A DNA stretch of 63,127 nt, the filler included, from Chrysochromulina tobinii (lineage: Eukaryota): the NCBI GenBank assembly GCA_001275005.1. It is 8 parts of 8 records of this genome, joined end to end, with 100 filler letters (N's around TTAATTAATTAA, not from the genome) between each part and the next. Parts side by side here need not be neighbours in the genome. Positions count along the whole stretch, not along the records: positions 2,833 to 19,804 come from JWZX01000918.1; 7 more parts are not named here. One strand, 5' to 3'. Of this stretch, positions 2,833-26,812 are shown one piece after another (within the stretch, counting starts at the first letter, position 1; each line of letters opens with the position of its first letter). The translations under genes were made by a program, and so were the position numbers. The notes beneath the pieces are model-generated. The model had not been told where the DNA came from, made no database searches, and saw only the letters and a list, made by a program, of their open reading frames with translations.

Positions 2833-2894
2833 ATACGGCGCCTCGCGAGCACGCAGCCGAGCGTGAGCGCTACCTTGGCCAGCAGAGCCTGCCG

Positions 2895-4373: not shown

Positions 4374-5749
4374 TGACAGGTGGCCTCGTGACGGCGCTCG
4401 TGACGGCGCTCGAGGAGCGCTCGGCGGGGGGATCGGGGGCGGCGGAGTTGGCGCCTGAGCGCCGTCACGAGCGCCTGAGCGCCGTCACGAGCGCTTGAGC
4501 GCCGTCCTGGTGGACAGATTGGGAGCTCACGGGCGGGGGCTCGTCAAGCTTCGTCAAGCTGCGGTCGCTCGCAGCCCGAGGGACGCGAGATGTGTGGCGA
4601 GATGTGTGGTGCATTAGGGTGACTGGATGGCCAATGGGGGTGGACCTCATCTGGCGTCCTCCGCGATTCGATGCGGTGGGAGCTGTGTCGGTTGACCAAG
4701 GGTCCGGCGCGTGGGATAGCCGGGGCATGCTGCGGGGCACGTGGAGCGGCGTCACACGCCTCACGTCCCTAAACTGACGCTTCCGGATGTGCCTGGCCCT
4801 GGGGTGTGCATGACGCATGTCGGTGACGGTCCCCAGACCCCACATCGGTGACCAACACATGTGGATTTGCGGGATGGGGGCGCGGATGCAGTAGCTGCGA
4901 CCGTCGGGACTGTGCGGTTATGCGTGTACAGCTGGTCTCCTGCCGTGAAGCGTGACCGTGTCCGTGAGGGTGAGCGCGCGCGAGGACCGCGAAGGGAAAG
5001 CTAACTAGGCGAGGCGCGAGGAGGTCGACCCTGGCGGCCTAGCCGCGGCGCAACGCGACGTGGAGGGGCTTGTCGAGGTAGAGGGCGAAGGCGCCATGGG
5101 CGCGGACTTTGTTGCGCACGTGGTCGTGCCCGACCAGACTTCGACCAGACGGCCACATCGAGCAGCAGGCCGTCCTCGCGCGGCGCAAGCAGGCACAGCT
5201 CGATCTCGGATCTGCTCAGACACTGCACACTGGCGGTGGCGGTGCATCGAGCGAGCCGCCGGCCGAGGTGCAACAGGTTCACCTGAGTGAGGTGCGCCGG
5301 CTGCCGCCAAGCTGGTGACGAGGACAGACCGCTGTGTCATCTTTTATAACCATAATTTTGGTTCCTTTACGGCCCAAATACGCGAGGTCGAAGCAGGTCC
5401 CGGGACCGGAGCCGGTTCGGGAGATTGGAGCTAAGTATGGAGAGACACCGCGCATTCTCAATTCTGCAAACCATACTTAGTGCCGTTCGACGCGGCGGCT
5501 TTCGACTCGCGGCGGACCCCTCGGGACGTTTTACCTACGAACCGCCCACACGGTACACAGTCACTGAGCGTGAGCGAGCCGAGCAGCCGAGGCACGACGC
5601 CGAGCCCCCGAGCGCACGTGGCGCTGTGTCGCGGCTCGCGCACCGGGGCCCACTGAGCACGCGCTGGGGCCCGAAGGGGGACACACACACGGCAGGAGAC
5701 GCAGGACGGCGAGGGTCGTCCTAAGCAGTGCACGCCAAGGGCGTGCCGC

Positions 5750-7234: not shown

Positions 7235-7607
7235 CCGCGGAGGGGCAACCCGGCTGGCTCGCTCCCGGGGACTTTTTACTATTGTAGGGGCCTGCCTCCT
7301 ATTCTGTGATCGGTACGGATACACATGTAAAAAGACACCGTGATCGGTAAAAAGACACCGGGGGGAGCCGGGACACACACGGGACACGCGGACGCACAAA
7401 GGCACACGGACCGCACAGACGAACCTCACACACGGTACTGTGAATGGCCCCACGAAGGGGACCCCTGGAAAATGGGAAGGAGCACACCTTTATAGGGGTG
7501 GCTGTAAAGGTGTGGCTGTAAAGGTGTCGAAAAGTCAAAGTACATTTAGCGTGGTTTGAAGTCATGAAATTCCCCACAGCTTTTCGCGCCCTTTTCCAAT
7601 TCCTTTC

Positions 7608-9219
7608 ATGTCTAGCATCCTGAAGACATTTTCGGACGATGATGAGGATGCCGAGGTTTCTTCTCTGGCGCATCAAGCGGAGCAGCCAGTGCCAGCGCTA
7701 CCTCCGATGCTACCGGCACCGCAGCCGTGTCTAGCAACCCGTGAACCGAAAGATGGAGCCGAGGTGACAGACTTCATTGATCCGGAAATAGACACTGCGA
7801 GCTCCATCTACCACGGCGAATTAGCTTGGTGCGGACTTCCTCGGAAGGGGAGCAAGGCACGGCCACTGGCACACGGCAAGGGTATTCTCACGCTCAGCAA
7901 CGGCAGCAAGTACGAGGGCTCGTTTCAGCGGGGCCAGAGGCACGGCTACGGAAGGTGGGCCACGGACGATGGCGATGTCTACGAAGGCGATTGGCGCGAG
8001 GATGAGGTGACTGGGGCCGGCACGCTCAACTTCGGTGCTGGTGGGTCCTACAAAGGCGAGTGGGTGCACGGCTATCCGAACGGGCAAGGCACCAAGGAGG
8101 AATGCGACGGCACCAAGTACGTCGGCCAATTCCTCAACGATCGCCGCCACGGATGGGGCAAGCTTTACGACCCGCACGGTGCGCTCGTCCGCGAGGGTGA
8201 CTGGAAGGACGGCAGAGAGTACAACCCGCCGCCGAAGCCTGCCTCAAAGAAGAGGGAGTACAAATTTGTCGGCAGGGTACGCCCCAAAAGCCCGAACACC
8301 CTCCCGTGCACACATGTCCTTTCTCGGAGCTCATACGCCCGCTGAATGAACTCATGCGGCGCAGCTCGACGATATGGGCGATTACTATGTGCTGGTCGCC
8401 AAGGAGAATGAGACAATCGGTCAAATGGCCAAGGAGCTCGACCGCGGGTGCTCGCCCGAGGAGCTCATCGAATTCAACGCGAAGAACCTCCCATGTCTGA
8501 CGAGCAAGTCCAAGTTCAGGACCGGGTGCGAGGTCCGGTTGCCAACACTGAGCTGCGCCTACTACCTGGCCGACGCCAGGGTAGCCAAGGCAGAGACCGA
8601 GGCTGAGGCAAGGGTGGGCGACGCCCATCGTGAGATGGAGGTGGCCAAAGCAGAGGCAGCAAACGCCAAGGCCGAGGCGGCGAACGCCAAAGCAGAGGCG
8701 GCGAATGCCAAGGCCGAGGCGGCAGCAGCAAAGGCCGAGGCCAAGGCCCTCAAGGGGGCATCGGAGCAGGCGACCACCTCTTCGGAGGCGACCACCGCGG
8801 CCGTCGGCTCCAAGCACCAGCCACGACGGCCAGCGGAGGCCGAGGTGGAGGCTGACGTGGAGGATGAGGCGCCGAATGCGTCCGCCATGGTGGCCAGGCT
8901 GACGCAGCTGGACGACGCAGTGAGCAAGGAGCAGGCTAAGTTCAGCCAAGGCCGTGCGCAGATCGATGCTGTGCGCGATGGCCCGCTCGCCTCGGCGGTG
9001 GCACTGATGATCCCAGAGATGGAGAGCGCGCTCCAAAAGGTCCGAGAGGAGCTCGAGCGGCGCGACGGCATCAAACGCGCGCTGCTGCAAGCGCAGCAGG
9101 AGCACCACGCGGCCACTGAGGCAGAGCAGGTAGTGAAACGGCGGCGGCTGTCTGCCCAGACAGCGCTCATGGCGGCATGGCATGCGTCGAGTGCATGTAA
9201 AATATACAAAGACGACTAA
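7608..9219 (+). CDS. MORN-repeat / LysM-like / coiled-coil protein (2 exons: 7608-8276, 8365-9219)
   Basis: MORN repeats (YEGSFQRGQRHGYG, YKGEWVHGYPNGQG). A phase-0 GTACGC...GCAG intron at 8277-8364 joins ORF 8374..9219 in frame; that ORF begins with LysM-like VAKENETIGQMAKEL...EELIEFN...FRTGCEVRLP. Confidence 0.75.
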
Positions 9220-9508
9220 GTGTGTCTGCGGACCCGGTGAGTCTGTTATGACTTATGTTCTGTTATGTGAATGACATTATGAATGGTGAATGACATAATA
9301 GATAATATGCCGCGTATCGCGTATAAACTTACTGAAAAGACCGCGTTGAACGTGAGAAGACAAGTCCGAGAGTCCCAAGATGTCAGATCGTCGAGGATAC
9401 TTAGACTTAAGCTCTTAAGGCGCGCACGCACCCACCATGTTGACACCCACATCGCGCACACGAACCCACCACAGCTATGAGCTAAGAGCTTTCCAATGAC
9501 GATGTCCT

Positions 9509-11014
9509 TCATTCTCTCTGCGCGACGGCGAGGCATACGTCGAGATGCGAATTGATCGCACTCAGAGGGATGCTTGCGCCACACACGGGGCAGGTCGCCA
9601 GGGAGCAGGAGCGTTCCGCGGCGCGCTGCTGCGCTTCCACCCGTGGTGGCGACGGCGCGGCTGCAGCTCGATCTGATCCCGCCGTGGGAGTGACGAAACC
9701 CAAAGGGGGCGTGGGAGTGACGAAACCCAAAGGGGGCGTGGGAGTGACGAAACCCAAAGGGGGCGTGGGAGTGACGAAACCCAAAGGGGCCGCCTTGCGC
9801 ACGAACTGTAGAAGTGAGGGCTGGCCTGGCTCAGCGCGCTTGCGCTTTGCGGCCGCACCCGTCGCCGAACCCGATGCCCCGCTGTCGGCATACACGAGCA
9901 CGAGCACCAGACGGCTCACCCGAAAGGGCTGGGTGCCGACTGCAGCCTCGAAAGTGCGCGTGGCGAGCGCCGCGATGGCGTGCGCATCCTCATTCTTCGC
10001 GGGCGGCCAAGCCACCTGAGCCTGACGGACTTCCTTCGCGCTCGGGAAGAGTTTCCATTTGACCACGAGCTGCGCGGGCCGGCGCGGGCCGTACGTGGCC
10101 ACGTCATCCTCCGCGCGGGAGAGGAGCATGGGCGCAAGATGCACGAATCCATGATGCACGTGCTCCAGCCTGGTGGCGGGCTCGTGATCAGTCGGCCGTA
10201 CGGAGCACTCCACAGAGAGGCTACGCGGCAGCTGGAATCGACTTACGGTGCTGCCGTCGCACGCCGTGCTGAGCAACGAGCCGAGCGCCTCCGCCTCGGG
10301 CGCGCCGAGAGCGGCGGCAGCGCCGTGCGCCTCCTCCTCAAGCCATGCGCGCGCCTGAGCGAGCGTCGCCGCCTCGCCGAGGACGTGCTGCAAGCCGAGG
10401 CGCGTCGAAGGACGGAGCCCGTGCAGCCCGGCACCGCAGATCTTGTCGACTCTTGCCGCGTCGAGCAGTGCCCTCTCCGGTGCGGCGCCCACGCAGCAGT
10501 ACATGCCGTTGGGCTTGGCGTGCTTCGTCGCGAGCATAGAGAGCAGCTTTGTCCGAGCGAGGCCGACAGAGCAGCGCAGCCCAGTCGCTTGCAGCACCGC
10601 TGCTCGAAGCTCGTGAGCCCACGCCGTGGCAGCCTCCACTGAGGCCAACCGCTCCGGTAGCTGGACGAAAAAATCATCAAAGGAAGAACGCTCGACTTGA
10701 CGGCCCAGCCAGCTGGTGGCTGGCAGGCCGGGCGGGTCGAGTGAATGCATGACGCACGTGAGCACCGCCTGCCCAGCGCTTCGGTACCGCTGCATGGCAT
10801 TGACGCCATTGTCCCCGCGAACTAGGACCAGGTCAGGGCAAAGGCGCTTTCCCTCCGCCACCGAGATCCTGTTGTACAACCCAAATGCGCGCGCCTCGTA
10901 GTTGACTGCTGCGATCTCCATATTCTGTTGGACGCCAAGCGGACGGCCACGCACTGAAAGCCGCACCTCTTCGACTTGCGCGAAGAAGCAATCGACGTCC
11001 AGGTGGGCGATCAT
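9509..11014 (-). CDS. Y-family translesion DNA polymerase, Pol iota-like, with C-terminal UBZ4-type zinc finger
   Basis: Motifs MIAHLDVDCFFAQVE, PLGVQQ, VNYEAR, CPDLVLVRG, VERSSFDDFFV and CSVGLARTKLLSMLATKHAKPNG; C-terminal CPVCGASIPLSAINSHLDVCL. Confidence 0.9.
   Translation of the reverse strand: MIAHLDVDCFFAQVEEVRLSVRGRPLGVQQNMEIAAVNYEARAFGLYNRISVAEGKRLCPDLVLVRGDNGVNAMQRYRSAGQAVLTCVMHSLDPPGLPATSWLGRQVERSSFDDFFVQLPERLASVEAATAWAHELRAAVLQATGLRCSVGLARTKLLSMLATKHAKPNGMYCCVGAAPERALLDAARVDKICGAGLHGLRPSTRLGLQHVLGEAATLAQARAWLEEEAHGAAAALGAPEAEALGSLLSTACDGSTVSRFQLPRSLSVECSVRPTDHEPATRLEHVHHGFVHLAPMLLSRAEDDVATYGPRRPAQLVVKWKLFPSAKEVRQAQVAWPPAKNEDAHAIAALATRTFEAAVGTQPFRVSRLVLVLVYADSGASGSATGAAAKRKRAEPGQPSLLQFVRKAAPLGFVTPTPPLGFVTPTPPLGFVTPTPPLGFVTPTAGSDRAAAAPSPPRVEAQQRAAERSCSLATCPVCGASIPLSAINSHLDVCLAVAQRE
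9683..9790. repeat. 27-bp tandem repeat x4 encoding PPLGFVTPT within the polymerase linker
   Basis: GTGGGAGTGACGAAACCCAAAGGGGGC repeated. Confidence 0.9.
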
Positions 11015-11205
11015 ATTCGCGAGACTCAGGACGCCATTTTTCGGCGATCGTGCGACGAAACACCAAGCAGTGCATTTCACACCAACCTGTAGGCGTTCAC
11101 ACAACAGGCGGCAACGGTCCTACCACAAGGTCCTCTCTTAGGTTACCGTTTGCAGACATAATTTAAATTCACAGTTCAGTGCTGTAACTTTTCTCCCCCA
11201 ACAAA

Positions 11206-13425
11206 ATGACTGATGGCCAGGAGCGCGTGCGCTTGCGGGCGCGCGAGGGCGAGGCTGTCGAGTGGACGCGCCGGGTGGCCCAGCGAGCTGGCACGCTCAA
11301 AGACATGATGGACGACGCTCCAACGGAAGATGGCGTCTACCCGGTGCCGATGATTGCGGCGGCAGAGCTGGCAGTGCTCCGGGAGATGTGCGAGGCCGAC
11401 TCCATGCCGGTGAGACTCGAGCAGTGCTCGATCTCGGAGCTCTTCAGGCTCGTCGAGGGCGCCAGCTTCCTCGATGCCCCCGGGGCGCTCAATCACGCGC
11501 AGCGCGCCCTCGCCACACGCCTCAACGGCAAACGCGCCGATGAGCTGAGAGAGCTGCTCGGCGCAACGGATGACTTTGGCAGTGCGGAGAATCGCGTGGC
11601 GGCACTCGCCGAGCCGGCGTTCTCGCCGGGGGGGCAGCTATCAGTAGCCACGGTGGGCTCTGCGGCGGGGCCACCCGCGCTGCAGCCGCAGCCCTCGCTG
11701 TCGGGGATGGCAGTCACAGACGATGCCATGGAGGAGGCGCTGGGCATGGTCGACGTGGGCACGCTGGCCGAGCTCAAGGGCGTGAGCCGATTGTGGTTGG
11801 TGCTCGCGCGGCGCGTGCTCTGCTCCCGCCTCAGCCGCTGCGAGGGTCAGTCCGCGCCCACTCAGCTGGCTGAGATCACCGATCTCAACATCAAGGTCCT
11901 CGTCGACGCGGGCCGGCCATGGGAGGCGGCGGCGGCGGGGAGGATGCTGCCCAGCCTGGCCCGATTGCGCTGGGAGGGCTTCACAGTGAATGTGGCCGCG
12001 GTCCGCGAGGTAGATCTTGACGAGGACGAGGACGAGGATGAGGACGAGGACGAGGATGAGGACGAGGACGAGGACGAGAGGCCGTTCCTTAGAGGCCCTG
12101 CCAAAACCGCTCTCCTCAGCTGCATTGAGGGAGAGGGCGAGGCGACGCTCAAGCTACTGCTTGCAGCTGTTGCCTGCGCCGGCTCTGGCGAGGTGCGCGG
12201 CATACCGGTGCAGATGATGCGCGACGACTCCGTCTCTGAGCTCATCCTGAGTGAGCAAAACATCGGCGTTCAGGGCGGCATGCTTCTTGCGCATCTCGTG
12301 CCTATCATGGGCAGGTTGACGAGCCTCAACCTCTCCGGAAACCAGCTGTGCGGCCTCGATGATGATGATCTTGGAAGAGGAACTTTCACTGCAGAGGGCA
12401 TCACAGCAATTGCCGACGCTCTGCGCGTCAACGGCGGTCTGACGAGCCTGGACCTCTCCAACAACGCACTCTGCGGAGTGGCCCAAACCTGGGAAGGCCA
12501 ATATGGCACCTATACCACAGAGGGCATCACTGCAATCGCCGACGCCCTGCGCGTTAATGGCGCGCTGATGGCCCTGGATTTGTCGTCCAATGACCTCAAG
12601 GATGAGGGCGTATGCGCAGTCTGCGAGGCCATCCAGAGAAACAAGGAGACCAAGCTCGCGTCGCTCAACTTCAGGAACAACGGCATCGGTCCAGTTGGAG
12701 CAAACGCTGTGGCGGCTATGGTAGCTGTCACAGGCGCGCTGACAATGCTGTCGCTCGCCCAAAACATGTTGGAGGAGGATGGCACCAAAGCCATCTGCGA
12801 GGCACTAGAACAGAACACGACGCTTAAGGAGCTCGATTTGCGTGGCAGCAACATTGGTGGTTCAGCAGGAGCCAAGCACGTGGCCAAGATGGTAGGCGTC
12901 AACAGCGGGCTGACAGCCCTGGATTTGTCCAACAACTACCTCAAGGATGAGGGCGTAAGCGCAGTCTGTGAGGCCATCCAGAGCAACAAGGAGACGAAGC
13001 TTGCGTCGCTCAACGTCAGTGAAAACGGCATCCATCCAGTGGGAGCAAAGTCTCTGGCGGCCATGGTGGCCGTCACAGGCGGGCTGACGAGCATCAACCT
13101 GTCCAAAAATGATCTCACCAACGACGGCGAGGACATGACGGGCCTCAAGGAGCTCGTCGCCGCTCTTGGCGTCAACGGCGCCATGGCCAAAATACAGTAC
13201 GTTTTGCCTTGAGCGAATTTTCGGCCAGTATCACCCGTTTGATGTGCTGCAAAGGGGTGCTCCTTCCTCGCATATCCTGGCATATGACGCTCCCCACCGC
13301 TCTCTTGCAACCCGACGATGCACCCTCTGTGTGCGCGCAGCCTTGAGTACAATCACCTCGATGAGCAAGCCAAGCAAGCCCTCCGAGACGCATGGCGGGG
13401 CGCCCCCTCACACTTGAAGCTCTGA
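11206..13425 (+). CDS. SKP1-like + F-box-like + acidic tract + RNI-type (NLRC3-like) LRR protein (exons 11206-13196, 13341-13425)
   Basis: SKP1-like N-terminus (VAQRAGTLKDMMDD...LFRLVEGASFLDAPG...LNGKRADELRELLGATDDF), (DE)n tract and many LTSLDLSxNxL repeats. A GTACGT...GCAG intron at 13197-13340 gives the in-frame terminal exon HLEYNHLDEQAKQALRDAWRG...LKL*. Confidence 0.8.
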
Positions 13426-14390
13426 GAGGTGGTACACGAGTTTGTACACGCGCAATCCAAGCTGCCCGACTACCAGACGACGACGAGCACGGGAGCTCTT
13501 CAAACCGGTAGGCAAGCAGGTCAAGCGCGACTTCACCGCGCGTGCCGCCCTGTAGAATTGGGGCACCAATTGGCTACAATCGGCGGTCAAACTCACTCAA
13601 CACGTTCGGACAAGGTGCGGCAGCTCCTCCGCCACCATGATTGACATAGTCCAGCCGTCGCCGGCCGCGGGCCGTGGCTGGCAAGTGCTGCAGACCATCA
13701 CTACCCTGGTAGTCACTTTGTCCATCAAAAGTGACTACCGCCCGCCGCCTACGCCTCACCCCGTGGCTCCCAGACAGGTTTTGTCGCAATGGTAGGCATG
13801 CCCAGCAGCAAGCGCGGGCACGGCGACGCGTGCGCGAGCGCTGGCGGCGTGCGGACGGCGACGCTCGCTCGAGCCCCTCGGCCGGGCAGCCCTTGCACGA
13901 GAGGCCGCGCGCCAGCCGTGAGGGTCCGCCGTGCGGGCGTTTGGGACCGGTCAAACGAGTACTGTACCGAGGTTACTACCGCGACCTCGTACATGCTTGG
14001 GCCGAGGTACACGCCTTTTACAATTACACGCCTCAGTAACGGTGTGTAGGTAATTGGGCATTAGAGCCATTACTTACAAGAGAACCCGCATTCACTCATT
14101 TGTCGTAAAAAGCGTTAAGCGACGCGCTTAAACCTTAATACGAAATACCACCGCCCCGGCGTCATGCCCGGCGTGGGCGCCATGGTGGGCGCCAACGCTG
14201 CGGGCCCACCGCGCACCGGCTCGGCTATCCTCATGGCTATCCTCTTTAGATCTTCCATCATGTACTTCCATCATGTACTTCCATTGCTGGCGGGGGGGCT
14301 TCCCATGGGGCTTCGATTGCTTTTAGATGGCTGGGGCGAGAGGGGGCTGGTGACACGGCCCTTCGCAACACATGAGAACCTTTGGCAATT

Positions 14391-16505
14391 CTACTTGCGA
14401 CGGAAGAGCGAGCCGAGGACGAAGGCAGTGCCCGCAACGGCGCCCCCAACGATTGCGGCGGCGAGCGTGGTCTTGGGCACGCCTGTCTGCGCTGACGCGT
14501 CCTCGAGCAGCTCCAGTGCACGGCCCACCCAGGGGCTTGGAGCGCCCAGGGGCTGGGCGGCGGTTGGAGCGCCCAGGGGCTGGGCGGCGGCTCGCGGAAG
14601 GATCAAGCGTCCTTCGTCTCTCTTGTCTCTTGTCTCTTCTCGTCTTGTCTCTTCTCGTCTCTTCTCTTCATTCACGGATGCAACAGCCATCTTGGCGGCA
14701 GGTAGATCTGGTACCGCCTCCGCTACCGCCTCCGCCTCCGCCACCGCCTCCGCCACCGCCTCCGCCTCCGCCTTGACATCAGCCTCAGTGTCGGCCTTCG
14801 CCTTCTCCGCGGCTGACTCGGCTCCAGTCACCGCCACCGCTTTATCCTTGGGCTCGGCCTCCGCTTTAGCCTTGGCCTCGGCCTCCGCTTTCGCCTTGGC
14901 CTCGGCCTCCGCCTTAGCCCGCGCCGGCATTGGAGGAGGCACGCTAGGCCTGCGTGGGGGCGGCAGGGCTGTCCCTGGGCTAGAGGCTCGGGCCGTTTGG
15001 GGCATTGGAGGAGGCACGCTTGGCCTGCGCTTTGGCGTCGCAGGCTCCTCTGGCCCCGATGTACCTGTGGCGCCGTGGTGAGCACTTGCATGCGTTGGCG
15101 TCGCAGCAGGCTCCTCTGGCCCCGTGGCTCCGGCGATCCTGCCCGTAGCGATGCTCTCCTTGGGTGGCTCGCCAGCGGCAGCTGCCGCCACGTTGACGGG
15201 GACGGCCGCCGCGCTCACGGCCGCCCCGCTGCCCACGACGGCGCTCACGGGCGCCCCACTGCCCACGACGGCGCTCACGGGTGCCCCGCTGCCCACGACG
15301 GCGCTCACGGGAGCCCCACTGCCCACGACGGCGCCACTGGGAGCCCCACTGCCCACGACGGCGCTCACGGGAGCCCCACTGCCCACGACGGCGCCACTGG
15401 GAGCCCCACCGCCTACGTGAGCTCCGCGCTGGGAGATCTGGACTCTGGGCGCAGTCCCTGGCATCTGCTCGACCAGGGCTGGGGCCGCGGTGGCGCCCTT
15501 AGCCGCCATGTCCGCTGCCTGCTCCCGCAGGCACAAGTCGCAGCCGCACACGAAGCCGTAGTTCTCACGCAGGGCCGCCCGCCGCTGCAGATAGGTCCAC
15601 TCGCGCGGCATCGCGAGGTACGCGTGCGTGAGCTTCTCGCCCGGCAGGAGGTCGCGCTTGGCAAAGGCGCGCACGAGGCCCTGCCCGGTACTCGGATCGT
15701 GGCCGCGCTTGGCGAGGATCTTCGCCTCGCTCACAAAGACGATCGTCGGGTCACACGCGTGGTTGGCCCGCGCCGCGAACGCGTACAAGGCGTTCGCGTG
15801 GAAGGGACTCGTCTTCTCAGCGCCATTGTCAAATAGGAACTGGTTGCAATGGAAGCGCAGCAGCACGGCGCGCACCTCCTCCACACGAGCGGCGCGCGCC
15901 ACGGCGGTGGCAAACGGCAAGCACGCTGGGAACGGTGCATTCGACCCCCCGACGAGGCGCTCAGCGCCCTCACGCACGTGGCCGATCTCTTCTGAGACGA
16001 TGCCCAGGTCGTTGAGCTGCTTGAGCGCCGTCGCCCACGGCCCATTGGCCACGTCTCCCAAGGCCCGCGCGCTCAGCTCCTCGTAGGCGCGCCAGCGCGT
16101 CCCATGGTGCTGTTCGACGGATTGCTCGTCCCGGCGCACCACGACGAAGGGCGGCTCCTCAAAGAGAGGGCAGCCGCGTGGCACATGCTCGCTCACGATG
16201 AGGCCGCGCCCGCACGTGCCCTGCGCGTCCTCGGCGGTCACTGCGGGGTGGCAGACCGCGCCCTCGAGGCCTCGCGGCAGGAGCACAAACTCCAGTGCGA
16301 GCGCTGACTCATGCACCAGCTCCGAAGTCTCGCCAAAGTCTCGCAAAGCAGCAGTCTCGCCAATGTCGACACGCCACAAGCCCGTTGTGGGATCGAAGGT
16401 GCGCAGCACGCAGAGCGCGCCGTCAAACTTCGCGCCCTTGGCGCGGATCCTGCAAACCGAGCCCTCGTGAATGCGGGTCGCGCTCGTGCGGCTCTTCAGC
16501 AGCAT
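14391..16505 (-). CDS. SMYD-like SET-domain methyltransferase with repetitive C-terminal region and terminal hydrophobic segment
   Basis: Motifs GRGLIVSEHVPRG, ANHACDPT, AKRDLLPGEKLTHAY and RRAALRENYGFVCGCDLC; 30-bp SAVVGSGAPV repeats at about 15200-15410. ATG at 16505 is the likely start. Confidence 0.8.
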   Translation of the reverse strand: MLLKSRTSATRIHEGSVCRIRAKGAKFDGALCVLRTFDPTTGLWRVDIGETAALRDFGETSELVHESALALEFVLLPRGLEGAVCHPAVTAEDAQGTCGRGLIVSEHVPRGCPLFEEPPFVVVRRDEQSVEQHHGTRWRAYEELSARALGDVANGPWATALKQLNDLGIVSEEIGHVREGAERLVGGSNAPFPACLPFATAVARAARVEEVRAVLLRFHCNQFLFDNGAEKTSPFHANALYAFAARANHACDPTIVFVSEAKILAKRGHDPSTGQGLVRAFAKRDLLPGEKLTHAYLAMPREWTYLQRRAALRENYGFVCGCDLCLREQAADMAAKGATAAPALVEQMPGTAPRVQISQRGAHVGGGAPSGAVVGSGAPVSAVVGSGAPSGAVVGSGAPVSAVVGSGAPVSAVVGSGAPVSAVVGSGAAVSAAAVPVNVAAAAAGEPPKESIATGRIAGATGPEEPAATPTHASAHHGATGTSGPEEPATPKRRPSVPPPMPQTARASSPGTALPPPRRPSVPPPMPARAKAEAEAKAKAEAEAKAKAEAEPKDKAVAVTGAESAAEKAKADTEADVKAEAEAVAEAVAEAEAVAEAVPDLPAAKMAVASVNEEKRREETRREETRDKRDEGRLILPRAAAQPLGAPTAAQPLGAPSPWVGRALELLEDASAQTGVPKTTLAAAIVGGAVAGTAFVLGSLFRRK

Positions 16506-16891
16506 CGTGGTCGCGAACCGTAGTGAGTGGCGGCAGCAGCTAAACGTGAATGCGTTCACGTTCACGTTAAATTGCCATCTCGGCAAGACGCACGCCCTTC
16601 TAAACCGCCCCCGCGCGGTACCCGCCATGGTGTGAATGTATGTGTGTGAATGTGAATGTGTGTCTGTGTGATTTCTAACACAGCCACAGGTCCCGTGGAG
16701 ACACAGACGTGAATGCGCAAGCGCAGTTCGTCCTAACCCCACTCCCCCCTCCCCCCATCCCCCACCTGATTGCCTTCACAATCCCGCCCGGTAGTATAGG
16801 GAAGTTTGAAGTTTTCGCGACGGCGTTTACCGGTACCGACAACAAAATGGGCTAACCCGCTTGCGTTGCCGTCCTGCTCTCCCCATCGCTC

Positions 16892-19804
16892 ATGGCATGG
16901 CACCGTCGTTTCGCCAAGTCTCCTTGCTCTCGGCCACATCGGCCTCGAGAGAAGCAGGGCGTGCGCGGTGCCCACACTCTCCTTGCATGGTGCACCATCC
17001 TGCCCTGCACCGAGACCAGCGACGTTCCCGGGTTGAACCGAGGTCTGCAGCTCGCGGTGCCCAGCCACCGCCGTGAGCTGCAGACCGCGGTGAGCGCCAG
17101 CGCTGACCTGACCAGCGCACTCGCCAACACCGCCGTCAGCCGCATCGTCCTTGCCTCCGGCACCTACAACCTCATCGCCGAGCTCAGCATCACCAGGAGC
17201 GTCATCCTTGAGGCGGCGGCGGGAGCCACGGTCACCCTGAACGCACAAGCGAGCTCCTCGAGTCAGCGCCGAGTGCTGAACATCAACCCGGGTTCGTCGG
17301 GCGTCGTGCAACTGAACGGACTTCGCATCACGGGAGGCCACATCAACAACTCAGTGCGCGCTCAAGTTCCCATCGCTCCGATGGGAGACTCACGTTTTGC
17401 GTTTTGTTCGCAGGGAGGAGGTGTCTACGTCTCTTCCGGCACGGTCACGATAACGTCTTCCTCGATCTACGGGAATATAGCTTCCAATGTGCGCGCTCAT
17501 CTTCATAAGTTCCCAATGCCCCCACGGGAGACTCATGTTTGGCTCGTTGTTTGCAGGGCGGTGGTGTCTTTGTCACATCCAGCACAGTCTCAATCGTCAA
17601 CTCCCAAGTTTATTACAATCAAGCTACTAGTTTTGTCGTGCGTGCTCATGCTCAAAAGTTCCCATCGCCCCGATGGGAACAATTCTGACGCGCTTGATTT
17701 GAGTCTCGCTCGCTCTACTGCGGCCAACTCTTCGATCAACTACAGTCTGTACGCGCCGCAGAGACTTGAATGTTTCCCATCGCCCCGATGGGAAAACTGC
17801 TGACATGCTTGCCCCAACTCACGCTTGCACAACTGCAAACGATGCTTTGGTCGACAACAGGGGGTGCGTGCCACAGAGACCTTGAAAACTTCCCATCGCC
17901 CCAATGGGAATCCCTTGCTGACATGTTCAACTTGACACTCGCCTTTCAACTGGGTGGGATCCATCTTTTGTTCTACCAGGGATATGTACGTACCTGCAAA
18001 ACCCCATCGTGCTCGTGTTCAAAAGTTCCCATGGAAACTAACGTTTTGCTCGTTGTTTGTATAGGGCGGCGGTGTCTACGTCTCTTCCGGCACAGTCTCG
18101 ATAACGTCTTCCTCGATCACCGGCAACACAGCTTCTGGTTCATTTTTTGTGCGTGCTTAAGTGCAAAACTTCCCATTGCCCCAATGGGAAAGTTGCTGAC
18201 GTGCTTGCCCCGACTCACGCTTGCTCAACTGCGGCCGACGCTTCCGTCAACTACAGGGGGTGCGTACTGCAGAGACCTTGAAAGGTTCCCATTGGGCCGA
18301 TGGGAAAATGCTCACGCGCTTGCTTTGATTCTCGCTTGCACAACTGTGGCCGACGCTTCGGTCAACTTCAGGGGGTGCGTGCTGCATTGACGTTCAAACG
18401 TTCCCATGGCCCCGAAGGGAATATGGCTGACGTGCCCAAATCGACTCTCATCTTTCAATTCGGATCGATATTTGGTCCTATCAGGGAGATGTATGTGCCA
18501 GCCACGCCTGCAAACTTCCCATCGCCTCGATGGGAGACTTACGTTTGGATCCTTGTTTGCAGGGAGGCGGTATTCGTGTCGATTCTGGCACGGTCACGAT
18601 CACCGCGTCCTCTATCACCGGGAACACAGCAGTGGGCAGAGTGCGTGCTCATCTTCGAAAGTTTCCCATCGCCCCCACGGGAGACTCATGTTTGGTTCGT
18701 TGTTTGCAGGGCGCTGGTGTCTTTGTCACGTCCGGCACAGTCTCAATCGTCAACTCCCAAGTTTATTCCAATCAAGTTGATAATATCTTCGTGCGTGCTC
18801 ATGCTCAAAAGTTCCCATCGCCCTGATAGGAAAGTTGCTGACACGCTTTGCCTCGACTCTCGCTTGCACTACTGCGGCCGACTCTTCGATCAACTACAGT
18901 CTGTACGTGCCGCAGAGACCTGAAGTTTTCCCATCGCCTCGATAGGAAAATGGCTGACGCGCTTGCTTCGATTCGCTCGCACAACTGCGGCGGACGCTCC
19001 GGTCAACTATAGTGTGCCTCAAACCCATGTGTACGTGCCGCAGAGACCTGAAATTTTCCCATCGCCCTCAAGGGGTGCTAATGTTTTTGCTCGTGGTTTG
19101 CAGGGACCCAATGTCTATGTCTCCTCGGCGGGCACCGTCTGCACCTGGGCAATGGCCCTCACCAACGAGGTCGCAGGCTCAGTCTCGACTTGCACCGCAC
19201 CACCGCCCCCGGCGCTGCCACCGCCACCGCCATCGCCACCCCCTTTGCCACCGCCACCCTCGCCGCCGCCCTCACCTCCATCACCCTCGCCACCGCCGCC
19301 TTCGCCACCGCCTCCCTCACCGCCACCACCTTTGCCACCACCCTCGCCATCACCCTCGCCACCGCCGCCCCCTACACCATCACCATTACCATCACCATCA
19401 CCTCCTCCTTTGCCGCCTTCGCCGTCGTGTCCTCCGCGATCTCCGCCTCCGCCGTCGCCGCGGCCACCGTTGTACTGGTGTGACGACACGTGCACGATCA
19501 CAGTGCAAGGCGAGATCGCGCCGGAGACAATCGTCCTGCACAACAACGATGTGTGCAACGATGGAGGTGAGGGTTCCGAGTTTTCAGGTTGCCGCATCGG
19601 CACCGACTGTACTGACTGCGGTCAACGATTAGTCATGCCACCTTTGCCGCCGCCACCGTTCCCTCCGCCACCGCCTCCGTCACGCCCTTCCTGCCCTTCT
19701 TTACCGCTACCGCCCAGCCCGCCGCCGCCCTCGCCCTCCCCTCCACCGTCCTCGCCCTCGCCGCCGCCGCCCTCGCCATCACCACCACCGCCATCGCCCT
19801 CGCC
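16892..19804 (+). CDS. Multi-exon Pmp-like right-handed beta-helix surface protein with microexons, Pro-rich stalk and Cys-rich module (3'-partial)
   Basis: Exons: 16892-17353, 17414-17488, 17557-17637, 17746-17748, 17861-17863, 17980-17985, 18065-18148, 18257-18259, 18372-18374, 18485-18490, 18563-18640, 18710-18790, 18900-18902, 19013-19030, 19104-gap. All 14 introns are GT...AG and phase 0. The product is GGGVYVSSGTVTITSSSIYGN-type repeats followed by PPPSP tracts and CNDGGEGSEFSGCRIGTDCTDCG. Confidence 0.8.
17354..19103 (+). repeat. Family of 14 homologous introns sharing a TTCCCATCGCCCCGATGGGAA-type hairpin
   Basis: The hairpin or a degenerate version recurs in each intron (e.g. 17368-17386, about 17659, 17774, 17890, 18170, 18516); donors are GTGCGC/GTGCGT/GTACGC/GTACGT/GTATGT. 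Confidence 0.85.
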
Positions 19805-20561
19805 NNNNNNNNNNNNNNNNNNNNNNNNNNNNNNNNNNNNNNNNNNNNTTAATTAATTAANNNNNNNNNNNNNNNNNNNNNNNNNNNNNNNNNNNNNNNN
19901 NNNNTATTTACACTGTCTTCGGGTGTACTGCCATCGGGTGTACACTGTCATCGGGAGATCGGGTGTACGACGAACTTCGAATACAAGTAAACTAAAGTGG
20001 TAACGTAACGCTCCGGTGCACATAGTGTGTTTGTCAGCTTTTGGCTCTCCACAACTTAGAATTCTTTGGCAACCGCGCCCACAGGCGGCCGGGCCCTCAC
20101 ACTCGAAGTTTTCGACTCAAGGTCAAGCGGCTTCGACGTGGAATGTGTTAATGATAGCGCCAGACGTGCACCATCCTCATGCACGCTCGGGCGCTGCCTT
20201 CAGCCGCGCGCCGCTACCGTTCATCGCAGGGGCTACCGGTAGGTGTGAAACCGCAACGCAGCAAACTACCGGGACTTCGCGTCGCGCGCGCGCCGCGCGA
20301 GGCGGCGGCGGCGAGCGGCGGCGACGGGGTGGGGCTGGGGGGCGGGAGCGTGAGTTTGTGTGTTTGCCTGCCTGCGTTTACGTGTTGACCGGTTTGTCCC
20401 AAGCGCTGTGGTGGGAAGGGAGAGGGCGGGTATGACTTGACTTGACTTGACGTTTCATGCTCGAACCGGTACAAGCTCGCATTCTCCCATCCTCGGCGGC
20501 TAAACCCGGCGAGCAACTCGGTGTCCTTCCGGCCGCCGCCAGAAGCGCATTCAGGAGCAAG

Positions 20562-20774
20562 ATGTGCTTCAAGACGACCTGTGTCGTGTGCAAGCTTCCG
20601 ACCTGGACTGGGTGTGGTCAACACGTTGCGTCGGCACTCAGAGGCATTCCCGAGGAGAAACGGTGCCCCGTGTGGAAGACTGGCGCGGGCTCGCACAAGC
20701 TGGCCGAGGGTGAGACCACCGAAGCGCAGGCTGGAGCCGCTTCAAAGCAGGCTCAGCAGTGCGACATTTCATAG
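20562..20774 (+). CDS. Small Cys-rich conserved-type protein, copy 1 (ends in CaaX-like CDIS)
   Basis: MCFKTTCVVCKLPTWTGCGQHVASALRGIPEEKRCP matches the small C-x4-CxxC-x3-TWxGCGxH protein pattern seen in fungi and protists. Confidence 0.7.
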   Translation: MCFKTTCVVCKLPTWTGCGQHVASALRGIPEEKRCPVWKTGAGSHKLAEGETTEAQAGAASKQAQQCDIS

Positions 20775-21647
20775 AGTGGCGCAACCGTCCTGCACGACCG
20801 TGCAGACATTCCTGCAGACCGTCCCGCACGGCCGTTCTGCACGACCGTCCTCGCCGTGGTTCCGTCGAAATTATCGAGCACGCACATCACACACGAGGAA
20901 ACGAGCAGTAGCACAGCGCCGAAAGGTGGTGACTGCTGGCTGAGGGATTATGTGCCAAGCTGCCACGGCTTTCCATGTACAAGCGTCGGTTATTTACACT
21001 GTCTTCGGGTGTACTGCCATCGGGTGTACACTGTCATCGGGAGATCGGGTGTACGACGAACTTCGAATACAAGTAAACTAAAGTGGTAACGTAACGCTCC
21101 GGTGCACATAGTGTGTTTGTCAGCTTTTGGCTCTCCACAACTTAGAATTCTTTGGCAACCGCGCCCACAGGCGGCCGGGCCCTCACACTCGAAGTTTTCG
21201 ACTCAAGGTCAAGCGGCTTCGACGTGGAATGTGTTAATGATAGCGCCAGACGTGCACCATCCTCATGCACGCTCGGGCGCTGCCTTCAGCCGCGCGCCGC
21301 TACCGTTCATCGCAGGGGCTACCGGTAGGTGTGAAACCGCAACGCAGCAAACTACCGGGACTTCGCGTCGCGCGCGCGCCGCGCGAGGCGGCGGCGGCGA
21401 GCGGCGGCGACGGGGTGGGGCTGGGGGGCGGGAGCGTGAGTTTGTGTGTTTGCCTGCCTGCGTTTACGTGTTGACCGGTTTGTCCCAAGCGCTGTGGTGG
21501 GAAGGGAGAGGGCGGGTATGACTTGACTTGACTTGACGTTTCATGCTCGAACCGGTACAAGCTCGCATTCTCCCATCCTCGGCGGCTAAACCCGGCGAGC
21601 AACTCGGTGTCCTTCCGGCCGCCGCCAGAAGCGCATTCAGGAGCAAG

Positions 21648-21881
21648 ATGTGCTTCAAGACGACCTGTGTCGTGTGCAAGCTTCCGACCTGGACTGGGTG
21701 TGGTGTACACGTTGCGTCGGCACTCAGAGGCATCCCCGAGGAGAATCGGTGCCCCGTGTGGAAGACTGGCGCGGGCTCGCACAAGCTGGCCGAGGGTGAG
21801 ACCACCGAAGCGCAGGCTGGAGCCGCTGCAAAGCAGGCTCAGGAGTGCGACGTATCATCACAGAGGTTACGAAGGCTTTGA
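21648..21881 (+). CDS. Small Cys-rich conserved-type protein, copy 2 (C-terminally extended)
   Basis: Paralog of 20562-20774 with substitutions and the tail ECDVSSQRLRRL*. Confidence 0.65.
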   Translation: MCFKTTCVVCKLPTWTGCGVHVASALRGIPEENRCPVWKTGAGSHKLAEGETTEAQAGAAAKQAQECDVSSQRLRRL

Positions 21882-22291
21882 ACCTCTGTGGTTCCATAGA
21901 GTGGCGCAACCCTGCTCGACCGCGCAGACTGTCCTACACGGCCGTTCTGCACGACTGTCCTCACGATGAGCACGACGCCCGATGAGCACCACGTTCCGAC
22001 GACAGTCTCAAGCACGCTCGGCACGCACGATGACGCGAGCAGTAGCACAGCGCCGAGAGGCGGTGACTGCTGGCTGATGGATATGCGGTGCCCAGCTGTG
22101 CGACACGGCTGTCTGACACTCTGACTTCATCTTCAAAATACTGTGTTCACAGTTCAGTCAAGTCGCTAGTACGTAGTACGCACTGTGCGCTGTCGAAGGT
22201 ACTGTTTATCCCTAATACTTTACGCTCGTGCACAGCTTTTGTCTGTCCACAGCTTAAAACCGGCAACCGCGCCCACAGTGGCGGCGGGCCC

Positions 22292-25200
22292 TCACTCCAG
22301 TTTGACAGCGCCCATGAAAGCGCCGTTCGTGCCGTCTGCCGCCGCGCCGAGACGGCGCGTGGACTGTTCGCGCAGCTCCAGCGGCTGCTCGGCGGCGTCC
22401 TCTCGCTCAAAGCGCGCGAGCAGCCGCCAGTCGTACGGCCGGTGCACGTTGAAGTCGCTCTCCCATCCGAGGAATCCGTGGGTGTGCAGCTGGCCGTCCT
22501 CCATGTACGCTGCCGCGAACTGGGGCCCGAGGAACTGCTCAAGTGCCTGCGCGACCGGATCGCGCGCGGGCGCGGGCGCGGGCGCGGGCGCCATCTTGGG
22601 CGCGCGGCTGGTCACGGCGGCCGTGGTGGAGGAAGACGTGTCGCCCAGGCGCGGTGCCTTTGAAGGTCGGCGTCCGCCTTTCGACGATTGGGCGGGAGCT
22701 GCGCTGCCGCCATCGGCGGCCTCGTTCACAGCGGCCGCGTCCTCCTCTTCCCAGTGCGCGACCAGGAGAGCGTGCTCGGCGCGCCGACGCTCCAGGTCCG
22801 AGACGGCGTTGAGCAGCGCGTTCATCCGTGCCTTGAAGACGGCCTCCGACAAGAAAGTTGGCCCAACGCTCCCTGCGGGTGCGGGCGGCAGTTTCTTGCC
22901 CGAGGGCGCTGGCACGGGCAGCACATCGAGTACGTCGTACCCGCGAAACCAATCGGGTGGCGGCTCGGGCGCGTCGTAGCCGGCCCCGAGCGCGGCCGCG
23001 CTCGCCGGCGAAGCTTCGCGGAAACCTCCCGCACCGGGAGGCACCGCGGGGGCCTCTGCGGGCGGCAGCAGCGGCGGCAGCGGACGACGGCCGCCGAGGC
23101 GACACCCAAAATGGAGCTCGGGATCGTCGGCGATCTCAAAGTAAGCTCGGTAGCCGTGCTTGTACACGCCGAGAAGCAGCATCGCATCGTCGCGCGTCGA
23201 CCACGGGACGGTGTCTTCGCGTCCCACGCCTCCCGGCACTGTCGGGGCTCGGAAGGTGAGCAGTGGCGTGCGCTCGCGCTCGACGGCATCGGCGAGACGC
23301 TTGAGGATGATGAGCCGCGCCATGAAGGTGGCGCCGAGCTTGTGCACACGCTCCGCGTACTCGTGCCCGCCCGCGCTGGCGGAGACGTACGGCTCGAGCT
23401 CGTGCGTCTGCTCCTTGGTCAGGAGCGGCGCATCGCAGCCGAGCTGGGAGAGGAGCTCACGCGCTTTGGCAATCCCCTCGATCTCCTGCTCCCCGAGGGG
23501 AGGGCCACCCGCCGGGATGCCGAGACGGGCATCGCCCTTGTCACCGCCGCCCACTCCGGCGATGGGCACGCCCACGCAGAGGCAGACGAAGGCGACGCCG
23601 AAGCGAGCCACCTCGACGTCGTCGCGGAGCTTGGTCGCGCCGCCCGCGTACTCCTTGATGCGCGCCCACCGGCCGAAACCATAGGAGAGCATCGCGCGCT
23701 CCACGTTCATGCGCTCCGTCTTGCTCCACACGTGCGCGAGTGATCGGCGTGCCTGGCGGCGTGCCTCCTCCTCGTCCTTGGAGCCCTTGTCCTTGATGCC
23801 GCGCCGCTTGACGCCGCCCTCCTCGAGGTGCTCCTCGATCTCAAACTCGCTCGCCATGCCGAGCCGTGCCACCTGCTTCGACTTGCGCTTGACGTAGTAC
23901 TCGGCGAGCGCCTCGTCCTTCGCTTGCAGCTCGGGCAAGATCTTGGTCCAGAACTCAGGGTCGTCCATGTCGACGTCGTGCTCGTCGGATACAAAGGCCG
24001 CCTTCGAGAAGACCGAGCCGGAGCCCGTGTTCTGATCGTACGACACCTTGGTCGACTGCGCGAGGATCTCGTCAATGTCGGCCTCGTTGAACTTACGTGA
24101 CTGCGAGTCGTCCTCTTCGGACATGAAGATGTTGTGCGCGCCGCGCTTGAGCATCGCGTCCACCTCGGCGCGATCCTGCGGCGGCCCGCGCTGCTGCGAC
24201 GCCGTCACCGACAGTCCATCGGAGGCGCGGTCGGCATTCATGGCGCGCTCGAGGCCAAGCTTGCGGTTGGCGCGCTCGACCATCTCGGACTCGTACGTGT
24301 TCTTGGTGACGAACCGGAAGACCTTGACGCGCTTCGACTGGCCGATGCGATGCGAGCGCGCCATGGCCTGCACGTCGTTCTGCGGGTTCCAGTCGGAGTC
24401 GAAGATGATGCACGTGTCGGCCGCGATCAGGTTGATACCGAGCCCCCCCGCGCGCGTCGAGAGGAGGAAGGCGAACGTGTCTGAGCCCGGCTTGCAGAAG
24501 CGATCGATGGCGGCCTGTCGTAGGTCGCCGCGCACAGTGCCGTCGAGCCGCTCATGCGAGTAGCGGCGCTCGCGAAGGTAGTCCGAGAGTAGGTCGAGTA
24601 CGCGCACCATCTGCGAGAAGATGAGCACACGGTGCCCTTCGGCCTTGAGCTTGGGCAGCAGCTTGTCGAGCAGCACGCACTTGCCACTCGCCTTGAGCAA
24701 CGAGTCGAGGTAGCTCGGCCTCGGGCCGGCGCTCGGAACGGCGAGCGTCGTCGACGAGCCCGCCGCCACCGACGGCGGCACGCCCTCGACCTCGTCGGTG
24801 CCGTTGAGCTCCCTCTCTCGCTGCTCTATTCCCTGGATCAGGTACGGGTGGTTGCACACCTTGCGCAGCTCCATCTGCAGGTTGATGAGGGAGGGCATCG
24901 CCGCGCTCTGCGCGCCGCCGAGGAGGATCTCGCGGTTGCCCTCGAGCACCGCGCGGTAGCAGCGCTTCTGGAATAAGGTCATCTCGACCCAGATGATCGT
25001 CTCCTCGAGAGGGACGAGGCTCTTCTCGACGTCACCCTTTTGGCGGCGCAGCAGGTACGGCCGGATCTTCTCGTTGAGCGCGTCCACCTGCGCGCTGTCC
25101 GTGAGCGTGCCGAACTCGGCGAGGAACTCGTCCAGCGAGGGGAAGAGCTGCCTGTCGAGAAAGTAAAGGAGAGCCCACAGCTCGGTCGTGTTGTTCTGGA

Positions 25201-26812
25201 GCGGCGTGCCCGAGAGCAGGTGCATGTGCTCCATCGAGATCGTGCGCAGATCGGCCGCGAGTGCCGAGTCCTTGTTCTTCAGACGGTGCGCCTCGTCGAT
25301 GACCACGTACCGCCACGGGATCTTTTTGAACACGTGCAGGTCCTGCTTGATCACCTCGTACGAGGTGATGAGGACGTGGAACTTGTACAAGAGCGGCGCC
25401 TCGCTGCCCGGTTTGGGCGGGGGCACGACGTTGGGGGCGAAGTGCCACTCAACCTCGCGGATGAGCTCACGGGACTCATTCGAGCCGTGGTACAAGATCG
25501 TGTTCATCTCGGTCCACTCCTCAAACTCGCGAAGCCAGTGGGCGAGCGTGGAGAGGGGCGCGAGCACTAGAAAGGGGCCGCGGATGCCCTCCTCCTTCCA
25601 AATATGGTGCAGCGTCGAGACGGACTGGACAGTCTTGCCGAGACCCATCTCATCCGCGAGCATGACCGAGCGCCGATTGTACCACGAGAAGAGCAGCCAG
25701 TTGAGCCCCTCGAGTTGATACGGGCGGAGCGTGTGCCCGGCTTTGAAGGAGGGCGACGCGGTCAGCTTCTTGAAGGCAGTCTTGAGGGGCCGGAAGCCGC
25801 CAGACGCAGCCATCTTCTTCTCGTGTTCGGGCGGCGCCTGCTCGCGCTGGTGGTACAGCCGGATCGCCTGCTGCTCCGCGAGGAGCGTGCGGCAGCTCTC
25901 CCAAGTGCACGCCGCGTACGGCAGCGATCTCCACTTGACGAGATAGCGAGGCGGCAGGTCCTCGCTGTGGGGTGGCACCGCCTCACTCGCCGCCTGGCAC
26001 ACGATGCGCTCGACGACCTCAAAGTCTGGATTGTACGGCTCCTCATCGGTACGCGCGCCACGCCCGCCCTCGTCGCCCTCGTCGCCCAGGTCCCAGGTGT
26101 TGTCGGCGCCGTTGCCCGTCTCTCGCTCCGCCTGCGCCTTGAGGAATCGCAACACGCGCTGCTTGTTACTGAGCTCAGCCTCGAGCTCGCGCCGCGGCAC
26201 CCACTGGCAGTGGATGTGGGCGAGGCCCTTCCACTTGACGAGCAGCTCGGGCTCGCCCGTCTCCTCCGGCAGGCGGATCAGGTAGATTTTCTCCAACGGC
26301 CCCGGGAGCAGCCCCGGCCGCCACGCGCCCGCGACGGGCAGCGCGGGAGGCACGCCGCCTGCGGGCTTGGGCACCCACGACCAGTCGTCCTCGTCGTCGA
26401 TCCAAGCGCCCTCAGACTCGTCGAGGCCCTCGAAGTTGGCGTGCATGCTGCGAACGCGGGTTGGGACGCAGCAGCAAAGGGCTCAATAGGGGGGAATCGC
26501 GGAGCGCTCATGGCCAAGTGTGCAGCCGGGCAGAGGCAGCTGCTGGTGGAACAGGTACGAGTGCGCTGCTCGCACGCGGCGTGCCAACACGCACCGGTGC
26601 CGCTCCACGTACACCACGACGCCCAAGTAGGGCACCAGCCCGGAGCGGCCCTCGTCGTACAGGACCTGAATGCATTGACCGACTGCCTCTAGGGCGGTCT
26701 TGCCCTTGAGATTCATGGGGCGCGTCGGTCTCGCACGCGACGGACCGCCACCAGTCACCTCGGGCGCCGGCGCTGAGGACGGTGCCGGCTGCTTGCCGGC
26801 TCCTCGAGGCAT
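22292..26812 (-). CDS. CHD-family chromatin remodeler (Tudor-like, tandem chromodomains, SNF2 ATPase, SANT/SLIDE-like); exons 26812-26595, 26447-22292
   Basis: Chromodomains LLVKWKGLAHIHCQW and YLVKWRSLPYAACTWE; helicase motifs LADEMGLGKT, IDEAHRLKN, LSGTPLQNN, LLSTRAGGLGINL and QAMARSHRIGQ; WSTRDDAMLLLGVYKHGY. An in-frame GTGCGT...CAG intron lies at 26594..26448. Confidence 0.93.

Follow-up and report, generated by a model that had tools for sequence, protein, structure and literature searches.

How an exon of only three nucleotides (nt) can be recognised and joined to its neighbours is the question raised by a gene of the haptophyte Chrysochromulina tobinii. The gene lies in a stretch of DNA of 63,127 nt, filler included, in which 8 parts of 8 records of the assembly GCA_001275005.1 are joined end to end; this whole stretch is called here the window, and the gene occupies the end of the part taken from JWZX01000918.1 (positions 2,833 to 19,804). 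The particles that bind the ends of an exon have a larger footprint than this, and how recognition can then work is a long-standing open question, studied mainly on single animal and plant exons. The explanation that we hold, with a little more confidence than doubt, is that this is a gene for a surface protein with beta-helix repeats of a Chrysochromulina-like haptophyte, that its exons of 3 and 6 nt are spliced into the RNA, and that repeated cassettes of about 113 nt likely keep enough distance between the branch site and the next donor that both flanking introns can be recognised.

The original prediction had divided the introns of this gene into two classes, six short ones before normal exons and eight long ones before microexons, and its numbers proved exact when coordinates and lengths were recomputed. 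The gene is GC-rich and eukaryotic, with 14 GT..AG introns on the plus strand. It opens with a first coding exon (16892..17353), which holds an ATG in frame and the N-terminal part of an open frame with 131 database relatives. The short introns are intron 1 (17354..17413, 60 nt), intron 2 (17489..17556, 68 nt), intron 6 (17986..18064, 79 nt), intron 10 (18491..18562, 72 nt), intron 11 (18641..18709, 69 nt) and intron 14 (19031..19103, 73 nt). Five of them lead in this order into exons of 75–84 nt, namely 17414..17488 (75 nt, one rung of the beta-helix), 17557..17637 (81 nt), 18065..18148 (84 nt), 18563..18640 (78 nt) and 18710..18790 (81 nt), and the sixth precedes the terminal exon (19104..19805), the last one visible, in which the end of the beta-helix is followed by a proline-rich stalk that runs into a gap of N letters. 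The long introns are intron 3 (17638..17745, 108 nt) before the microexon TCT (17746..17748), intron 4 (17749..17860, 112 nt) before GGG (17861..17863), intron 5 (17864..17979, 116 nt) before GGATAT (17980..17985), intron 7 (18149..18256, 108 nt) before GGG (18257..18259), intron 8 (18260..18371, 112 nt) before GGG (18372..18374), intron 9 (18375..18484, 110 nt) before GGAGAT (18485..18490), intron 12 (18791..18899, 109 nt) before TCT (18900..18902) and intron 13 (18903..19012, 110 nt) before an exon of 18 nt (19013..19030). All eight microexons are flanked by an acceptor AG and a donor GT, and the length of each is a multiple of three.

The two classes differ in more than length. Their introns carry a palindrome that can form a hairpin, and 2–9 nt downstream of it stands a branch-like motif of the form YTNAY. 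It was found that this motif lies 21–23 nt from the acceptor in six of six short introns (CTCAC at 21 nt in intron 1, CTAAC at 23 nt in intron 6, CTAAT at 22 nt in intron 14) and 54–58 nt away in eight of eight long ones (CTGAC at 57 nt in intron 3), which is the near and far placement that had been claimed. The stretch free of AG ahead of the acceptor measures 24–37 nt in the short introns as against 40–99 nt in the long introns of the window.

Because every tiny exon is a multiple of three, the frame alone cannot separate inclusion from skipping. Four RNA runs contain parts of the gene, and the spliced evidence comes from one of them, run X4, at 98% likeness. A contig of 214 nt from this run follows the gene with 0 mismatches over 18130–18149, then has 11 further letters, and continues with 18563–18640, 18710–18790, TCT and 19013–19031. 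The G counted at 18149 together with the 11 extra letters reads exactly GGG, GGG, GGAGAT. Two clusters with five of the eight tiny exons are thus connected, in the order predicted, within a single error-free RNA contig, and these five are spliced in. The same contig covers the end (18130–18148) of the 84-nt exon, the 78-nt and 81-nt exons after it and the 18-nt exon; intron 7 is absent from it and so was removed, introns 8, 9, 10, 12 and 13 are supported by it, the GT..AG joint of intron 11 runs in it from 18640 to 18710, and it runs on towards the terminal exon, passing the 5' junction of intron 14 by 1–3 letters only. Introns 1 to 6 and the exons between them are read from the sequence, and the first microexon cluster, the other three of the eight, has no spliced cover in these RNA runs, where the region 17552–18120 is uninformative either way. 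Read placement at 90% likeness was dominated by contigs of paralogues; its joints could not be tied to this gene and were left unused except for 18640/18710. A transcript-derived protein across the last microexons was also sought; only P0009 and two open reading frame (ORF) calls that start inside an intron came up, and they give no independent support.

The joints in RNA also bear on the kind of site that is present. In recursive splicing at ratchet sites an acceptor stands directly beside a donor and no exon is left. The algal sites resemble these in having an acceptor next to a donor within repetitive intron sequence, and differ from them in that 3 or 6 bases stay in the RNA; a recursive site with a zero-length exon is ruled out by the GGG, GGG, GGAGAT and TCT of the contig. 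The candidates are at most 30 nt long, they have AG and GT flanks, and inclusion in spliced RNA was found for five of the eight, as is expected of microexons. The original prediction spoke of single-codon exons. This agrees with the RNA for those five as included exons, and their sizes range more widely, since exons of 6 nt and one of 18 nt also occur.

The relation between intron class and exon class was then followed through paralogues in metagenome contigs. The contigs were scanned with the hairpin pattern, which gave at least 128 stretches, of which 126 were analysed, and 29 of these 126 held at least three copies of the hairpin profile. Overlaps were removed, as was L020, whose sequence matches the window at 100% identity; among the matches listed this left 22 paralogous loci, all distinct, or 23 with the window. 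Each intron was parsed from its hairpin as anchor: the closest donor upstream was taken, then the branch-like motif that first follows the hairpin, and as acceptor the first AG lying 14 nt or more beyond this motif. By this procedure 12 of the 14 introns of the window were recovered; no hairpin could be detected in intron 6, and intron 3 was cut at an internal AG. The 23 loci gave 117 intron-exon pairs, which comprise 63 microexons, 46 normal exons of 69–102 nt and 8 unresolved pairs; the last, and introns that could not be parsed, were left out of the census. Apparent microexons of 2, 7, 8, 9, 11 and 16 nt were rejected as artefacts of false donors inside exons or of a missed CTCAA motif. The accepted microexons measure 3 nt (49), 6 nt (13) and 18 nt (1), so that 63 of 63 are multiples of three, and an acceptor AG and a donor GT surround every one of them.

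Outside the window, of the 57 introns that precede a microexon, 56 have a length of 93 nt or more and carry the motif 38 nt or more from the acceptor, in most cases at 51–61 nt. In all 42 introns before normal exons the motif is 19–27 nt from the acceptor; 40 of the 42 do not exceed 83 nt, and the other two, of 94 and 103 nt, contain a second hairpin. These two introns make the branch distance, and not the total length, the sharper rule. Intron length differs between the classes (Mann-Whitney p = 5e-17), with copies that are related and not independent. The rule of length and branch distance is kept in the 22 loci with one exception in 57. The claim that it holds without exception is too strong by two introns, intron 3 of the window, whose AG-free tract is broken, and L117:1056.

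It could be argued that the tiny exons are skipped for the most part, what lies between normal exons being in effect one long repetitive intron and inclusion a rare noise. Skipping would keep the frame, as all lengths are multiples of three, and the first cluster is without spliced cover. Against this, none of the five tiny exons is missing from the one spliced contig that extends across two clusters. In addition, no stop triplet occurs among the 49 three-base exons, which together with the lengths, multiples of three in 63 of 63, argues for a coding constraint. We regard widespread skipping as extremely improbable.

A distal branch point is suggested by the distribution of AG. Between motif and acceptor of the 57 long introns (2,966 dinucleotides) AG occurs 0 times as against 111 expected from composition, whereas GA in the same zone occurs 116 times against 111 expected. 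The zone begins sharply at the distal CTGAC-type motif, and AG is present within the 13 nt directly upstream of it in 26 of the 57. A sharp AG exclusion zone that starts at a strong branch motif is a standard indirect sign of a distant branch point, and a distal branch point is thus supported, indirectly. We predict the branch point at the CTGAC-type motif, and the acceptor would be the AG that follows it first. An AG-free tract in the long introns had been part of the original prediction, and it is borne out in the paralogues; intron 3 of the window departs from it. An internal AG cost only this one of about 60 introns with the spacing of the cassette. From the motif to the next donor the distance is 56–64 nt in 53 of the 57 long introns as compared to 93–123 nt where a normal exon follows. 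The long tail aligns as a duplicated branch module, and only about half of the tails have kept the A of its second copy. The long tails can all be aligned as homologues and fall into two subtypes, L1, which ends in ...GGTCAACTACAG before 3-nt exons, and L2, which ends in ...CTACCAG before 6-nt exons; introns 5 and 9 of the window have tails of the L2 type.

The downstream half of the cassette is a third element, absent from the original prediction. Introns that follow a microexon start with a head of their own, called type B (GTRCGTGCC.CAGAGACC...), which was recognised by rule after 61 of the 63 microexons and by eye after the other two, and after none of the 46 normal exons. Introns 4 and 14 of the window are examples, the former with the donor GTACGC. 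The donor after a microexon is GTACGT in 43 of 63 cases, with A at +3 in 51 of 63; after a normal exon it is GTGCGY in 41 of 46, with G at +3 in 43 of 46. Tail, microexon and head therefore move together as one unit, with the palindrome common to all introns at its borders, and such a unit would fit a spread by tandem duplication or unequal exchange. A duplicated hairpin or segment of hairpin plus branch motif was observed in the introns L023:861, L027:4511 and L109:509, and these duplications suggest that the palindrome is a breakpoint for small duplications.

Taken together, all introns of the family have in common a head, the palindrome and the branch-like motif. Before a normal exon the remaining tail is about 21 nt and rich in T and G. 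Before a microexon the branch module is duplicated, with about 55 nt of AG-free tail behind it, and the intron after the microexon begins with its own head, mostly GTACGT in place of GTGCGY. From this layout a mechanism can be proposed. A distance of 56–64 nt from the branch to the next donor would relieve a steric clash of the U2 and U1 particles, and a stronger donor would offset the lack of exon bases for pairing with U1. The cassette would spread by tandem duplication or by unequal exchange at the shared palindrome, and if it spread as a unit, as we propose, intron class and exon class would be inherited together. Judging from sequence, this architecture may be needed for the splicing of the microexons.

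A number of observations weigh against this explanation and have to be set beside it. The spliced support is a single contig of depth 2.3 from one run, and unspliced error-free contigs are also present at 18268–18445, 17746–17895 and 17300–17413. The loci were picked by a perfect hairpin, which biases the sample. In intron 3 an AG stands 14 nt past the branch-like A and breaks the AG-free rule; an alternative parse into a 66-nt intron and an in-frame 45-nt exon could apply there, in a region without RNA cover. The lone exception outside the window, L117:1056, is 79 nt long and has its motif at 28 nt before a 6-nt exon, and five further introns before microexons have it at 38–45 nt. Since the acceptor was defined as the first AG that comes 14 nt or more behind the motif, a part of the AG zero is built in. 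A second CTCAC about 39 nt from the acceptor is kept in 25 of the 57 long introns and a CCGAC about 19 nt from the acceptor is found in many, and either of these could be the branch actually used. Finally, since all the long tails are homologous, the correlation is partly inheritance and does not amount to 57 independent trials.

The last points are also what would be expected if duplication history alone had produced the pattern, that is, if tail, microexon and type-B head were simply an amplified unit with usable splice sites, in which the long distance has no role and the branch may be proximal. The tandem period of 115 nt at 18166–18425 (Tandem Repeats Finder) agrees with such a history, as does the fact that head and tail modules always accompany the microexon and that the homologous tails comprise just two subtypes. 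The CTCAC near -39 and the functional-looking exception with a distance of 28 nt would likewise fit. Amplification alone does not account for the complete depletion of AG in the tail when GA occurs there as often as expected and AG is frequent directly ahead of it, nor for microexon lengths that are all multiples of three. Conservation also speaks against it, for the codons of the microexons vary widely, with about 20 different triplets, while the flanking intron stays conserved, and the introns are more conserved than third codon positions. Mean pairwise identity was 0.76 for long introns and 0.78 for short ones, as compared to 0.68 for 28 distinct 75-nt exons and 0.58 for third codon positions. 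We therefore consider duplication history by itself an unlikely account. It was observed across all loci that the family introns are more conserved than the third codon positions of the flanking exons and do not track exon divergence, short-intron identity being 0.77–0.81 whether the third positions of the adjoining exons were 0.44 or 0.93 alike. Either most intron positions are constrained or the introns are homogenised separately from the exons.

The order in which the introns are removed offers another possibility. The two introns flanking a microexon might never be recognised at the same time. One flanking intron could be taken out first, the downstream one first as in plants, after which the microexon would end a normal exon, and the long tail would slow or time the upstream intron and would not serve to relieve crowding. 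The available text on plant microexons describes consecutive removal with the upstream intron detained (PMC8831610), and recursive removal is proposed for a 1-nt exon in the available part of another report (PMC4674806). Two of the unspliced error-free contigs, 18268–18445 and 17746–17895, run across microexon junctions and would be in keeping with it. No partly spliced intermediates were seen among the contigs, which cannot reveal order, and ordered splicing alone leaves the AG-free zone and the fixed distance of about 57 nt unexplained. It is quite improbable as the account of this gene, and it is compatible with a distal branch site held by a cassette, without excluding it.

In the original prediction the hairpin was a part of the microexon code. 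It should be noted here that the hairpin is present in both intron classes alike, and this cannot distinguish one exon class from the other. In the window a scan allowing up to 3 mismatches found 11 sites (22 strand matches) against 0.13 expected, all between 17367 and 18948, so that they are confined to the gene with the microexons; this agrees with the claim of a hairpin in both classes, apart from intron 6, where it is only vestigial. An active role of the RNA hairpin in defining microexons would find some support in the lowest-energy fold, which contains the hairpin wherever the palindrome is intact, and in its conserved place 2–9 nt ahead of the branch-like motif. The test for covariation, made on 90 distinct hairpins from 139 of 150 unique introns after 11 poor matches were dropped, found none: 82.4% of cells were paired as compared to 82.6% after shuffling, with 10 compensatory cells against 9.6, and the pairing is thus fully explained by column conservation. 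The inner pair is a standard one in only 46 of the 90. No consensus structure was predicted by RNAalifold for the 57 long introns, and whole-intron folds were no better than shuffles (z from -1.8 to +0.7). We consider a hairpin-centred code very improbable. The hairpin is thus a conserved palindrome of both classes and not the predictor of microexons, and selected RNA pairing is without evidence. A second small stem had also been proposed for the long introns; its motif occurs in only 16 of the 57, its 5' arm having been deleted by a 5-nt indel in many copies, and 5-bp stems in long introns show a slight excess over shuffles. What is left of the dedicated cis architecture first proposed is the distal branch motif, the AG-free spacer and the class rule, acting through a mechanism that would be as outlined above; hairpin and second stem drop out. 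Among the matches listed there were 97 non-family loci with the exact hairpin, and in 0 of them did a donor and a branch motif surround it. Introner-like mobile introns, near-identical in unrelated genes and with insertion footprints, thus found no support among these matches, and the hairpins of the window are confined to one gene.

The protein gives the exons their meaning. Among the 131 relatives of the first exon in the protein collection, gene models from Chrysochromulina parva and C. tobinii are the best that bear a name. The right-handed beta-helix PF13229, the Chlamydia PMP repeat PF02415 or kinase domains occur in several relatives; the curated cut-off of PF13229 was passed by P0009 and P0014, and PF02415 is found in the precomputed matches of others. 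A Pfam search with the first and last exons of the window taken alone gave no match. One rung has 25–28 residues (GGGV..G.V.I..S.I..N.A) and equals one exon of 75–84 nt. The microexons add 1–6 residues between such rungs, and some of these inter-rung linkers come from a single tiny exon, others from rows that reach at least five. In paralogues the proline-rich stalk is followed by a membrane helix, and a kinase domain is present at the loci L010, L042 and L072 and in the proteins P0014 and P0015, so a part of the family looks like receptor kinases with a beta-helix ectodomain. Three gene models of Chrysochromulina were inspected, and in each the protein contains translated intron sequence, in which the hairpin reads SHRPDG; the cassettes are thus mis-annotated there.

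As to the neighbouring sequence, the gene enters a gap of N letters at 19806–19852, and past it, at 19853–22130, a segment of about 1.09 kb occurs twice in tandem, its copies having identical ORFs at 19853–20116 / 20990–21202 and 20004–20435 / 21090–21521. On the minus strand, 22292–26482 is an open frame of 1396 residues for a chromatin remodeller of CHD type (Chromo, SNF2-related, Helicase_C, CHD1 HTH), apparently without introns over that stretch. Upstream of the gene, 14391–16775 on the minus strand is an open frame of 794 residues with a weak SET-domain match and a long low-complexity tail rich in alanine, glutamate and lysine.

Related systems are known from other lineages. For animal neural microexons, a long distance from branch to AG, long AG exclusion zones and strong donors are described in the available text of three sources (10.64898/2026.01.16.699960; PMC8797185; 10.1101/2024.09.17.613571), and in the available part of the 2026 preprint the extended distance is proposed to relieve steric constraints (10.64898/2026.01.16.699960). 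The algal microexons are like those that depend on SRRM3/4 (eMIC domain) in their long branch-to-AG distance, AG exclusion zone and strong donor, the branch here being a predicted one; the distance of mostly 51–61 nt and the 0 AG against 111 agree with the SRRM4/eMIC type. Animal neural microexons are single, tissue-regulated and set in long introns, and they use a UGC enhancer and a dedicated protein, whereas in the algal gene family exons of 3–6 nt stand in tandem arrays among introns of about 110 nt, with a duplicated branch module as a discrete part and without a known regulator.

The splicing of plant microexons draws on signals that lie in the neighbouring introns, with these introns removed consecutively, as far as the available text of two reports goes (PMC8831610, PMC4674806). 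Guo and Liu (2015) state in the available part of their paper that the smallest exon experimentally characterised till then was of 3 nt, and they report one of 1 nt (PMC4674806). The algal microexons are like the constitutive ones of plants, such as the 9-nt exon of potato invertase, the 1-nt exon of Arabidopsis APC11 and the conserved microexon clusters, in being very small and reliant on flanking-intron signals. They differ in that plant microexons are isolated and have U-rich upstream introns, whereas the algal ones are cassettes repeated in tandem. A branch point about 50 nt from the next donor was reportedly described by Simpson et al. in 2000. The micro-exon genes (MEGs) of Schistosoma have rows of symmetric in-frame microexons of 6–36 nt, which form most of the coding sequence and belong to secreted or surface proteins. 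Unlike them, the algal microexons are mostly of 3 nt and are only linkers between exons of 75–84 nt; as they add only 1–6 residues there, a gene of the schistosome type was ruled out. In the literature searched, no paper was found that names haptophytes together with microexons, none among the 20 papers listed of 206 names Chrysochromulina together with them, and rows of one-codon exons across a protist gene family were not found. The long distance from branch to acceptor before microexons is thus already known from animals, and tandem one-codon exons in a protist family were not met with in that literature.

The family supplies more than 60 natural exons of one or two codons together with matched internal controls, namely the short introns of the same genes, and it gives a simple rule that can be tested, made up of branch distance, AG exclusion and donor type. 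As intron sequence is translated in the three inspected gene models, the annotation of a large family of surface proteins and receptor kinases is likely wrong wherever cassettes occur. Possibly, and on balance doubtfully, haptophyte spliceosomes routinely define rows of single-codon exons by means of a self-contained cassette that can be duplicated, consisting of a distal branch site, an AG-free spacer and a strengthened donor. If this is true, the family would offer a natural system for probing how small an exon can be, the linkers of surface beta-helix proteins would change their length in evolution by single codons, and linkers may also vary by one codon through alternative splicing.

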